Shown: positions 18,408 to 24,814 of the stretch, one piece after another
How positions within the stretch are numbered: the stretch's first letter is position 1
How the letters are laid out: every line of letters begins with the position of its first letter
From: Candidatus Micrarchaeota archaeon
GTDB lineage: Archaea > Micrarchaeota > Micrarchaeia > Micrarchaeales > CABMGC01
Assembly (NCBI GenBank): GCA_021791245.1
Contig: JAJYWY010000012.1
Location: 1 to 59,243, forward strand
DNA: 59,243 nt
Reading direction: 5' to 3'
Translations under genes and position numbers: made by a program
Notes under the pieces: generated by a model
Databases searched by the model: none
What the model saw: the letters and a program-made list of their open reading frames with translations, nothing else
What the model was told of the DNA's origin: nothing

Positions 18408-18514
18408 TGCAGGGGAAGGGATTTGAACCCTCGAAGGCGCTAAGCCACAGGATCTTAAGTCCTGCGCGTTTTTCCGTGGCTACTGCCAGCCAGACCAGAC
18501 TCTGCCACCCCTGC
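18408..18514 (-). tRNA. tRNA-Leu(TAA) with a ~23-nt D-loop intron (~18471-18493)
   Basis: GCAGGGG/CCCCTGC acceptor, CAGGA-CTTAAGA-TCCTG anticodon arm, long variable arm, TTCAAAT. The D-loop insert folds as a BHB (TCTG/CGGA central helix). Confidence 0.9.
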
Positions 18515-21740: not shown

Positions 21741-21750
21741 CACTACCCCT

Positions 21751-21852
21751 GCAGGGGTGGCGGAGCTTGGTCAAACGCGCAGGATTGAGGAACTCACGTT
21801 CAAAATTCCTGTAGCTTTAGTGCTTGCGAGGGTTCAAATCCCTTCCCCTGCA
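21751..21852 (+). tRNA. tRNA-Leu(GAG) with a canonical 37/38 intron (21791-21805)
   Basis: CAGGA-TTGAGG[AACTCACGTTCAAAA]T-TCCTG; BHB with TTGA/TCAA helix. Confidence 0.93.
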
Positions 21853-21860
21853 AAGAGTTG

Positions 21861-23241: not shown

Positions 23242-23442
23242 ATGATGATACCTGTAAGGTGCTTTTCATGCGGACAAGTGGTTGCTGACAAATGGGAGGA
23301 GTTCAACGAGCGGGTGAACAAGAAGGGCGAAGACCCTGAGAAAGTGCTCACTGACCTCAAGGTGGAGAGATACTGCTGCAGAAGAATGCTGGTCAGCCAC
23401 ATAGACCTTATAGACGATATAATGAACTACGGCAGGAAATGA
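23242..23442 (+). CDS. rpoN: RNA polymerase subunit N (Rpo10)
   Basis: [11 protein letters not shown]...RYCCRRML. Confidence 0.97.
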
Positions 23443-23507
23443 TGCATAAGAAAAACAACGGGTATCGGCAATTAATATAAATAATTATGCATTTAAGATT
23501 AAAGAGA

Positions 23508-23610
23508 GGGGTCGTCTGCTAGCCTGGTTAGGCTTTGTGCTTAGGGAGCACAAGACCCGAGACAAAATATGCGGGAATTCAAAATGCAAATGAAAATCTC
23601 GGCGACCCCG
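23508..23610 (+). tRNA. tRNA-Pro(AGG) with two T-arm introns (53/54: 23562-23577; 59/60: 23584-23596)
   Basis: GGGGTCG/CGACCCC acceptor, TGTGC-TTAGGGA-GCACA anticodon arm, CCGAG/CTCGG T stem. Removing two BHB-flanked inserts restores TTCAAAT. Occupies the usual post-rpoN tRNA-Pro position. Confidence 0.88.
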
Positions 23611-23653
23611 GTGTGCTCGAAAGGGATCATTGAATTGAAATAGGAATGGTTTG

Positions 23654-24268
23654 ATGGATGAACAATTATTGACGGAACAATCAGAGTATTTAGAGGCCGG
23701 AATACACATAGGCGCAAAGACGAGGGCGCCTGGCATGTCAAGATTCATATACAAGACAAGGGAAGACGGATTATGCCTTCTCGACCTGCCTTCCATAGAC
23801 GGCAGGATAAAGATTGCAGCCAAACTGCTTGCGAATTACAGCCCTGAGAATATAGTAGTCACTGCCTCCAGAATATATGCTATAGCCGCAGCATCCAAAT
23901 TCGCTGAAATAATAAACGCAAAGTTCATGAAAGGAAGGGTAATGCCAGGCATCTTCACCAATCCCAACAGAAAAGATTATACAGAGCCGGAGATAATACT
24001 GATGAGCGATACAAGGAACGAGAAGCAGGCGGTCAGGGAAGCGAGGAAGACAAATATACCTGTAATAGCGCTCTGCGATACCGACAACTGGATAAAATTC
24101 GTAGACCTGATAGTTCCTTGCAACAACAAGGGCAGAAAGGCGCTTGCGCTTACGTATTTCCTGCTTGCCAGGGAATACATGAAAGAGAAAGGATTAATAA
24201 AGTCTAATGAAGAATTCAATTACAAAGTCTCCGACTTCGAGGCAAAAGTGGAGATGAAGGCGAAGTAA
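23654..24268 (+). CDS. rps2: 30S ribosomal protein S2
   Basis: YLEAGIHIG, GRVMPGIFTNP, IPVIALCDTDN, PCNNKG. Confidence 0.96.
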   Translation: MDEQLLTEQSEYLEAGIHIGAKTRAPGMSRFIYKTREDGLCLLDLPSIDGRIKIAAKLLANYSPENIVVTASRIYAIAAASKFAEIINAKFMKGRVMPGIFTNPNRKDYTEPEIILMSDTRNEKQAVREARKTNIPVIALCDTDNWIKFVDLIVPCNNKGRKALALTYFLLAREYMKEKGLIKSNEEFNYKVSDFEAKVEMKAK

Positions 24269-24271
24269 TTG

Positions 24272-24814
24272 ATGGATGCACAAAAAGGCAAGAAGGCGCA
24301 GGTAGCTATAGATTTCCTGATATCATATGGCGTAGCGATGCTTATAATCGCCGTATCCATAGTGGCAGTAGTGAAGCTCGGAATACTTAATCCAATCCTC
24401 TCCCCTGTATCATGCACCCCGTCGCCAGGATTCTCCTGCGGCTTCTTTTACATAACGCAGAATGGGATACTTACCATAAACATGTCGCAGGCTATAGGCG
24501 GGGCGATAACCATAAACGGCATATCCTGTTCTTCCAACTACAACCAGTCTGGAGACTTTCCGGAATACGGAAACGTATATGTTACAGGAAATTCCGTATA
24601 CTATCCTGCAGGAAGCGCGCCGGGATCAGGGATAGACATGTACAGCGGCACCTCGGACACGTTCGAAGTTTATTGCTATGACCCAAACGGAAAAGCAGTT
24701 GGAAGCATAAATAACATATTCTACGGTCATCTCTGGCTAAATTACACAATAGCAGGATCTGGATACAATACCGTAACGCAGAGCGTGGCTACATTCACTT
24801 CAAGCTATGTGTAA
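24272..24814 (+). CDS. Class III signal-peptide (type IV pilin-like) protein
   Basis: KGKKAQ-VAIDFLISYG processing motif followed by a hydrophobic helix and a Cys-containing polar domain. Confidence 0.8.
   Translation: MDAQKGKKAQVAIDFLISYGVAMLIIAVSIVAVVKLGILNPILSPVSCTPSPGFSCGFFYITQNGILTINMSQAIGGAITINGISCSSNYNQSGDFPEYGNVYVTGNSVYYPAGSAPGSGIDMYSGTSDTFEVYCYDPNGKAVGSINNIFYGHLWLNYTIAGSGYNTVTQSVATFTSSYV

Follow-up and report, generated by a model that had tools for sequence, protein, structure and literature searches.

We describe a proline tRNA gene in the 59,243-nucleotide stretch of DNA (the window) at positions 1–59,243 of contig JAJYWY010000012.1 of a Candidatus Micrarchaeota archaeon (GenBank assembly GCA_021791245.1). 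The gene lies on the forward strand at 23508–23610 and carries the anticodon AGG, with a genomically encoded adenosine at wobble position 34 (A34). By its place and introns it is the orthologue of the Pro(GGG) gene that the sister family carries between rpoN and rpS2. The distribution of both forms indicates that G34 gave way to A34 at or close to the root of the window's family, where the change became fixed, and that a single copy is kept in nearly all its members. We consider it likely, with some reserve, that A34 stays unmodified and that the tRNA reads CCU and, more weakly, CCC. The window's genome, called G000 in the coordinates below, comprises 838,607 bases in 42 contigs and is 92.55% complete.

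The precursor consists of a 74-nt mature tRNA and two introns, without an encoded CCA, and is defined by the sequence, by our own cloverleaf scanner and by an alignment of 79 distinct homologues. The acceptor strand GGGGTCG (23508–23514) pairs at all seven positions with CGACCCC (23603–23609). The D arm TGCT ... GGCT (23517–23534), placed from the sequence and the homologue alignment, contains a U10/U25 mismatch. In the anticodon arm (23536–23552), the stem TGTGC (23536–23540)/GCACA (23548–23552) encloses the 7-nt loop TTAGGGA (23541–23547), which includes U33. The anticodon occupies 23543–23545, exactly as given in a preliminary description of the locus made from the sequence alone, with A34 at 23543, G37 at 23546 and A38 at 23547. 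The variable loop is AGAC. CCGAG (23557–23561) and CTCGG (23598–23602) form the T stem, whose strands lie 36 nt apart where 7 nt are expected. T-loop positions 54–59, TTCAAA, are found at 23578–23583; the closing segment (23597–23610) holds T60 at 23597, the 3′ strands of the T and acceptor stems and the discriminator G73 at 23610. A single-sequence fold of the tRNA yields z = −3.62. ARAGORN misses the gene in a run on the window and in a whole-genome run with introns allowed, Rfam cmscan (E ≤ 10) on the window gives no match to it, and none of the 44 matches of a whole-genome RF00005 search (E ≤ 1) falls on it. This is caused by the 29 nt of T-loop inserts; our scanner, which permits such inserts, recovers the gene.

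Both introns are defined by their presence and absence among homologues and by a bulge-helix-bulge (BHB) motif. Intron 1 (16 nt, 23562–23577, forward strand) separates tRNA positions 53 and 54, and intron 2 (13 nt, 23584–23596, forward strand) separates positions 59 and 60. The 60 distinct AGG-type sequences carry both inserts in 17 cases, only the second in 42 and only the first in one. The corresponding counts for the 19 GGG-type sequences are 11, 4 and 2, and two further sequences have neither insert. Homologues that lack intron 1, including the 42 AGG sequences, read CCGAG and then directly TTCAAA. Intron 2 is absent from 1/60 AGG and 4/19 GGG homologues, where the uninterrupted sequence is TTCAAATCTCGG in the AGG homologue and the GGG homologues L037 and L038, and TTCGAATCTCGG in the GGG homologues L033 and L034. 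Because of this pattern of intron presence and absence, the mature loop is read as TTCAAAT. Removal of both inserts from the window gene would give this loop, in agreement with the intron-less homologues, and it is the same as in Pro(TGG) and Pro(CGG) of G000.

The BHB motif of intron 1 has a 4-bp helix, CCCG (23556–23559)/CGGG (23572–23575), with the 3-nt bulges AGA and AAT. That of intron 2 has the helix TTCA (23578–23581)/TGAA (23591–23594) with the 3-nt bulges AAA and AAT. The first helix is 100% paired in the 31 intron-bearing sequences and the second 99.7%, which amounts to 99.8% for both together, counted over cells with letters. Variation within these helices is by wobble only, with zero double changes, and is therefore a sign of conservation and not of covariation. 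Contig C10 of G000 encodes a candidate splicing endonuclease, a 383-aa open reading frame (ORF) with PF01974 and PF02778 domains. It matches the epsilon2 enzyme of ARMAN-2 (Ca. Micrarchaeum acidiphilum) in size and domain content and is predicted to cut at non-canonical positions. The text of Fujishima et al. (2011, PMC3239211) describes that enzyme as a three-unit endonuclease of 387–390 aa which cleaves strict and relaxed BHB motifs, and it places the introns of ARMAN-2 pre-tRNA-Pro(GGG) at 53/54 and 59/60, as in the window gene.

Inserts of this type are found in further tRNA genes of the genome. Outside the window, the genes for tRNA-Arg(TCT) (G000:C1:48757), tRNA-Ala(GGC) (C22:10873) and tRNA-Leu(CAA) (C28:6362) have a T-loop insert after TTCAAA or TTCGAA that ends in ...GGAA|AT or similar, and their place, 59/60, is that of intron 2. 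In the window, ARAGORN puts an insert of tRNA-Leu(GAG) (21750–21853, forward strand) at a non-canonical place, and tRNA-Leu(TAA) (18408–18490, reverse strand) has an apparent insert in the D-loop region, with an Rfam model score of only 28.5 bits. Non-canonical introns seem common in G000.

The alignment argues that the window gene encodes a functional tRNA kept under purifying selection. Across the 79 homologues the cloverleaf is 95.8% paired, with nine pairs changed on both sides (105 cells); 0/500 shuffles reach the observed pairing, and no slid control does either. The acceptor stem, the anticodon stem and the T stem are each 100% paired, with both-side changes in two pairs, in four of five pairs and in three of five pairs, respectively. 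The AGG clade alone has six stem pairs with standard-pair changes on both sides, among them a T-stem A-U that becomes C-G in 10 sequences and an anticodon-stem G-C that passes through G-U to A-U. A34 and G37 are each found in 60/60 distinct AGG sequences of the family.

At 23543 itself, no other letter reaches 10% of depth in the contigs of four public runs, which come from at least three studies. Run X1 may be the source of the window DNA. X8 and X9 seem to be a single data set that was filed twice, and each of them also contains a near-identical contig, a possible source. A further 104 genomes of the family have the same base, as do 67 named GenBank records of metagenome-assembled genomes. 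We found nothing that favours a sequencing, assembly or binning artefact at this position; a sequencing error is ruled out by these three sets, and the chance of any such artefact is close to nil. Because covariation, invariance of A34 and G37 and agreement of the contigs at 23543 coincide, a pseudogene or an error is very unlikely, and the claim that an archaeon encodes a tRNA-Pro with A34 is borne out by the cloverleaf, the proline-type backbone and the covariation of the 79 homologues.

We followed the locus through the relatives of the window's genome. A DNA search of 60 relatives found it in 53. The first 19 loci read from the window's family all have AGG, while GGG stands at this place, upstream of rpS2 and with the same introns, in 19 loci from the sister family and from a third family, which has one genome. 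It is because of this shared place and these shared T-loop introns in the GGG genes of the sister family that we regard the window gene as their orthologue. We then searched 248 genomes of the order with a pattern made of the D arm and the anticodon arm. The AGG form is found, always as a single copy, in 104/117 other genomes of the window's family (105/118 with the window's genome), in 0/1 of the third family and in 0/129 of the sister family. The GGG form is found in 3/117, 1/1 and 101/129 genomes of the same families, in line with the expectation that the tRNA after rpoN is normally Pro(GGG). One AGG-positive genome (G034) and one GGG-positive genome (G050) are flagged as unpublished; leaving them out lowers the counts to 103/116 and 100/128. 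The AGG gene spans 28 of the 30 genera of the family (29/60 in an order-wide genus tally).

A search with the rpS2 protein gave an independent set of 69 named GenBank records, nearly all of Candidatus Micrarchaeota. The AGG tRNA stands just upstream in 67 of them, and in the other two the upstream DNA is too short. In a phylum sample of 401 genomes, the AGG pattern is found in 75/81 genomes of the window's family. It is found in 0/319 genomes of 33 other Micrarchaeota families, a weak zero, as the pattern needs the D arm typical of the order and has no positive control outside it.

Three family members depart from this picture. In G119 and G120, the spacer that separates rpoN from rpS2 (found in L167 and L166) contains no tRNA. 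Elsewhere in the genome, at G119:C5:184616 and G120:C5:122392, both have an intron-less Pro(GGG) on a backbone of the Pro(TGG)/Pro(CGG) type. From these sequences, the two genomes appear to represent a natural reversion by replacement. The third genome, G022 (73% complete), has the AGG gene plus a Pro(GGG) on a TGG/CGG-type backbone at C84:433–459, and no Pro(TGG) was matched there. Its extra Pro(GGG) could be a mutated paralogue or could come from contamination of the bin.

These data also bear on the idea of a relic gene, decaying or unexpressed, in whose place Pro(UGG) alone reads CCU and CCC by four-way wobble. The failure of standard finders to recognise the gene and its deletion in two relatives would fit such a relic. 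Against it, a single copy is kept in 105/118 genomes and 28/30 genera, the three stems are fully paired and vary in a compensatory way within the AGG clade, neither A34 nor G37 varies and the splice motifs are conserved. Further, the two genomes without the gene carry Pro(GGG) elsewhere, which suggests a need for a proline tRNA with a purine at position 34. We regard a relic as highly improbable.

The remaining proline tRNAs of G000 indicate that the window tRNA has proline identity. Pro(TGG) and Pro(CGG) are both encoded on contig C1, and both have G73 and the T-loop TTCAAAT. The D arm of the window tRNA is identical to that of Pro(CGG), while Pro(TGG) differs at position 10 (G10/T25 in place of T10/T25). 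The variable loop AGAC is shared with Pro(TGG); Pro(CGG) has CGAC. With G35, G36, G37 and a backbone common to the other proline isoacceptors, the window tRNA has the sequence features of a proline tRNA. Among the 79 homologues, the D-stem pair 10–25 is unpaired in 70, with U10/U25 in 51/60 AGG and 19/19 GGG sequences. The discriminator of the 60 AGG homologues is G73 in 46 and A73 in 14. The preliminary description took G73 and the T10/T25 mismatch for atypical features. Neither is an oddity of the window gene, because both are present in other proline tRNAs of the lineage: Pro(TGG) and Pro(CGG) of G000 share G73, and Pro(CGG) has the mismatch too. In its text, the ARMAN study of Fujishima et al. 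(2011, PMC3239211) already notes the nearly unpaired D stem of ARMAN-2 proline tRNAs.

Pro(GGG) was not found in G000 by ARAGORN, by the RF00005 search, by the pattern or by our scanner. The other purine-34 tRNAs found for four-codon boxes all have G34, namely Thr GGT, Val GAC, Ser GGA, Leu GAG, Arg GCG and Gly GCC by ARAGORN and Ala GGC, read by eye, which has a T-loop intron as well. Only the proline tRNA is switched. Our scanner for T-loop inserts lists 22 tRNAs in G000, with A34 in the window gene only. A relaxed scan anchored on A34 gave no other convincing candidate in G000; it could pass over an ANN tRNA that is interrupted by an intron in its D or anticodon arm. The tRNAs for Phe, Ile GAT, Thr TGT and CGT, Arg CCT and a second Met were not found in G000, and the inventory is incomplete to this extent. 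The genome-wide listing proposed earlier thus yields neither a Pro(GGG) nor another ANN tRNA.

The change at position 34 goes together with a change of the anticodon loop. Position 38 (23547 in the window) is U in 19/19 GGG forms and never U in 60/60 AGG forms, which have A, C or G. The combination of residues 32 and 38 is U/U in 16 and A/U in 3 of the GGG forms, in contrast to U/A in 45, C/C in 10 and U/G in 5 of the AGG forms. Also the anticodon stem differs, being similar to CCAGC/GCTGG in GGG forms and to TGTGC/GCACA in AGG forms. The 32–38 pair tunes the strength of tRNA binding in the ribosomal A site. The remodelling of this pair looks like a compensation for a weaker wobble pair.

The expectation in the preliminary description was that the switch from GGG to AGG is matched to codon usage. 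In 697 crude ORFs of G000, proline is encoded by CCT 2589, CCC 887, CCA 2250 and CCG 1683 times, and the preference for CCT over CCC exceeds the corresponding preference in other boxes. The comparison between families does not support such a match. In 20 loci, each about 20 kb long, the mean of CCT/(CCT+CCC) is 0.65 in the sister family with GGG and 0.64 in the window's family with AGG; the pooled CCT/CCC counts are 1080/629 and 1325/774, respectively. The CCT excess over five other boxes is alike in both families, with log-odds of 0.60 versus 0.75 (Mann–Whitney p = 0.29, indicative only, as related genomes are not independent). Adaptation of codon usage to A34 is thus rejected, given the same CCT/CCC bias in AGG and GGG families. 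We conclude from these counts that the CCT bias preceded the switch and has not responded to it, although it may have made the switch harmless. In GC-rich genomes of the AGG family, CCC accounts for 24–38% of proline codons.

The A34 of this tRNA raises the question of deamination to inosine (I34). Passages of two reviews state that ANN anticodons and A34 deaminases or I34 are absent or not known in archaea (PMC8007984, PMC8879553). The preliminary description likewise held that archaea lack the TadA and ADAT2/ADAT3 wobble deaminases, and profile and zinc-motif searches found no TadA-like gene in G000. No domain of the cytidine deaminase (CDA) fold, of the MafB19 type or of the ADAR type is matched there (PF00383, PF14437 and PF02137, 0 matches in the 92.55% complete genome). 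The zinc motif [HC]AE...PCxxC does not occur in its six frames, and a relaxed version of the motif finds junk ORFs only. Two high-quality AGG genomes in which CCC makes up 24–27% of proline codons, G003 (97% complete) and G079 (95%), have no PF00383 match either.

Among the relatives, CDA-fold genes are equally patchy, with 44/118 genomes in the AGG family versus 55/129 in the GGG family, so that the suggested co-occurrence of such genes with the ANN tRNA does not hold. For five examples, the best NCBIfam match is TadA in four, at 72–87 bits and far below the cut-off of 150; the fifth fits ComEB better. In two of the five, the CDA-fold domain is fused to FolE (GTP cyclohydrolase I) or to a part similar to thiamine diphosphokinase (L045:1447–2601 in G102 and L042:1300–2550 in G086), which points to small-molecule metabolism and suggests a role of these fused proteins in pterin or riboflavin-type metabolism rather than in tRNA editing. 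A TadA-like enzyme is rejected for G000, in whose 92.55% complete sequence neither domain nor motif was found, and also as a family-wide partner, since the candidates are patchy, low-scoring and partly fused. An ADAR/ADAT1-type deaminase is likewise rejected for G000 on the PF02137 result. G000 does have a TIM-barrel adenosine deaminase (PF00962), which was rejected as sporadic (20/117 in the window's family, 7/129 in the sister family).

I34 could still be made by an enzyme outside TadA/ADAT, with Pro(IGG) reading CCU, CCC and CCA as in eukaryotes. Such a route is favoured by the invariance of A34 together with the missing G34 isoacceptor, which is typical of I34 systems, by the abundance of CCC in GC-rich family members, up to 38% of proline codons, and by a CCT/CCC usage that did not shift after the switch, as expected if decoding of C-ending codons was kept. 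The stand-alone CDA-fold proteins of some relatives, with TadA as best match, also speak for it. Archaea make 1-methylinosine at position 57, and the deaminase responsible is not known to have been identified; we count this as a further point in favour of such a route. The even distribution of CDA-fold genes in AGG and GGG families, the low scores and fusions of the TadA-like proteins, the sporadic PF00962 and the lack of any CDA-fold, MafB19-type or ADAR-type domain in G000 speak against it, as do the statements of the reviews. Thus, an A34 gene without the G34 isoacceptor is found as in I34 systems, whereas the co-occurring CDA-fold deaminase of such systems is not. We consider deamination to inosine possible though unlikely. 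That the whole family, with more than 100 species-level genomes, makes I34 with a deaminase unrelated to TadA/ADAT seems to us improbable.

With an unmodified A34, decoding could proceed as follows. The primary transcript would be cut at the two T-loop BHB motifs (53/54 and 59/60) by the encoded epsilon2-type endonuclease, then ligated, extended by CCA and charged by prolyl-tRNA synthetase, which would recognise G35, G36 and the proline-type backbone. A34 would read CCU by a Watson–Crick pair. CCC would be read less well, via an A-C wobble or by 'two-out-of-three' reading, which two G:C pairs would allow. Pro(UGG) and Pro(CGG) would read CCA and CCG. The change from G34 to A34 was probably near-neutral at its origin, given that CCU already outnumbered CCC and that the proline box tolerates A34, and it would have been accompanied by the remodelling of the anticodon loop at position 38. 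Such decoding is in line with a report, as far as its text goes, that tRNAs with an unmodified A34 extend their reading to codons ending in C or G if the first two codon positions form G:C pairs (PMC11066159). The text of a 2026 preprint (bioRxiv 10.64898/2026.05.15.725136) mentions wild-type growth of an E. coli proL-AGG strain and, citing Chen 2002, a Pro-tRNA(AGG) free of fitness cost in Salmonella.

Several observations weigh against an unmodified A34 that is firmly built into decoding. CCC is still common, with 887 of 7409 proline codons in G000 and up to 38% in GC-rich relatives. Such persistence is awkward for a poor reader of CCC and suits I34 better; it is the main point for I34. The strict exclusion of G34 where A34 is present is the pattern of I34 systems, and the lack of known deaminase families leaves room for another enzyme in a genome that is 92.55% complete. 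Loss of the AGG gene in G119 and G120, with Pro(GGG) on another backbone, indicates that A34 is neither irreversible nor indispensable. Finally, no RNA run is among the public runs that contain the stretch.

An A34 tRNA-Pro without Pro(GGG) has been described before, in another lineage of ultrasmall archaea. As described in the text of Fujishima et al. (2011, PMC3239211), ARMAN-4 and ARMAN-5 (Ca. Parvarchaeum) have tRNA-Pro(AGG) and tRNA-Leu(AAG), with the G34 forms missing. The statement that archaea almost never encode ANN anticodons is right, given that the 2026 survey counts, in the part available, 3 ANN among 10,517 archaeal tRNAs (bioRxiv 10.64898/2026.05.15.725136), but it overlooked this published precedent. 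Within the full-text literature, apart from supplements, the ARMAN tRNA tables and the identities of the three GtRNAdb cases, we find no report of Pro(AGG) in Micrarchaeota. The window's lineage shares with ARMAN-4 and ARMAN-5 a genomic A34 tRNA-Pro in ultrasmall archaea and the missing G34 isoacceptor. It differs in that it belongs to another phylum-level lineage and in that only proline is switched, with Leu still GAG (window 21750–21853). Compared with the text description of ARMAN-4 and ARMAN-5, the window gene is also distinguished by its two T-loop introns and by a switch that is family-wide and orthologous to a GGG gene.

Similar to the window gene, ARMAN-2 Pro(GGG) has, according to the same text, both T-loop intron positions with BHB motifs, a weak D stem and an epsilon2-type endonuclease of about 387 aa. 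In contrast to the window's family, with A34, another anticodon stem and a non-U38, ARMAN-2 has G34 as does the sister family. In eukaryotes, where ADAT2/ADAT3 convert tRNA-Pro(AGG) to IGG, AGG likewise replaces GGG, and the UGG and CGG isoacceptors are kept. Unlike in eukaryotes, which switch seven or eight boxes, a single box is switched here and the deaminase was not found in G000. The Leu-AAG and Thr-AGT tRNAs of Leuconostocaceae, as far as the text of PMC8007984 describes them, are a further clade-level replacement of GNN by ANN in a four-codon box, though these bacteria have TadA, and other amino acids and another domain of life are concerned. A parallel in decoding is given by the proL G34A mutants of Salmonella and E. 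coli, which, as the cited text reports, have the same change on the native Pro(GGG) backbone at no measurable cost. By analogy, they may serve as the best working model for decoding by the window tRNA, although they are bacterial laboratory mutants and the change in the window's family was fixed in nature.

We have here an archaeal family that keeps an A34 tRNA-Pro and whose G-to-A switch is dated; its sister family serves as a control, and two of its members are natural revertants. If A34 is unmodified, the family offers a natural test, at the scale of a clade, of decoding by wobble adenosine in a strong, G:C-rich codon box. If A34 is inosine, an unknown archaeal deaminase exists; Archaea would then have their first wobble inosine, made by a new tRNA-editing enzyme. 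Surveys built on standard tRNA finders will under-count such genes with T-loop introns.

The neighbourhood that defines the syntenic place was assigned by Pfam domains and sequence. The tRNA gene stands downstream of rpS9, between rpoN, the gene for RNA polymerase subunit N (23242–23442, forward strand; PF01194, 104 bits), and the gene for ribosomal protein S2 (23651–24268, forward strand; PF00318, 76 bits). An A/T-rich, TATA-like stretch at 23472–23484 (forward strand), roughly 30 nt before the start of the tRNA gene and picked by eye, is a candidate for a promoter of its own. Directly after rpS2 follows a 181-aa ORF (24269–24814, forward strand) without a Pfam match at E ≤ 0.001. The public metagenome runs that contain the window stretch are labelled as mine drainage and sediment.

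One call of ARAGORN outside the window, tRNA-Tyr(ata) at G000:C27:76830–76942, was considered as a second ANN tRNA and rejected, as by eye it is an intron-bearing tRNA-Ile(TAT) that was read out of register. Of the Ile codons of G000, 71% are ATA (14,055/19,862). Together with this usage, tRNA-Ile(TAT) fits the ARMAN trait of an Ile(UAU) tRNA without TiaS; the text of Fujishima et al. (2011, PMC3239211) gives tRNA-Ile(UAU) for all three ARMAN lineages. Two partial copies of the 3′ half of this Ile-type tRNA, ending in ...GAGTTCAAATCTCTCCGGGCCCA, follow some 5.5 kb downstream of the complete gene, at G000:C27:82330–82459. These copies could be attachment-site remnants of an integrated element.

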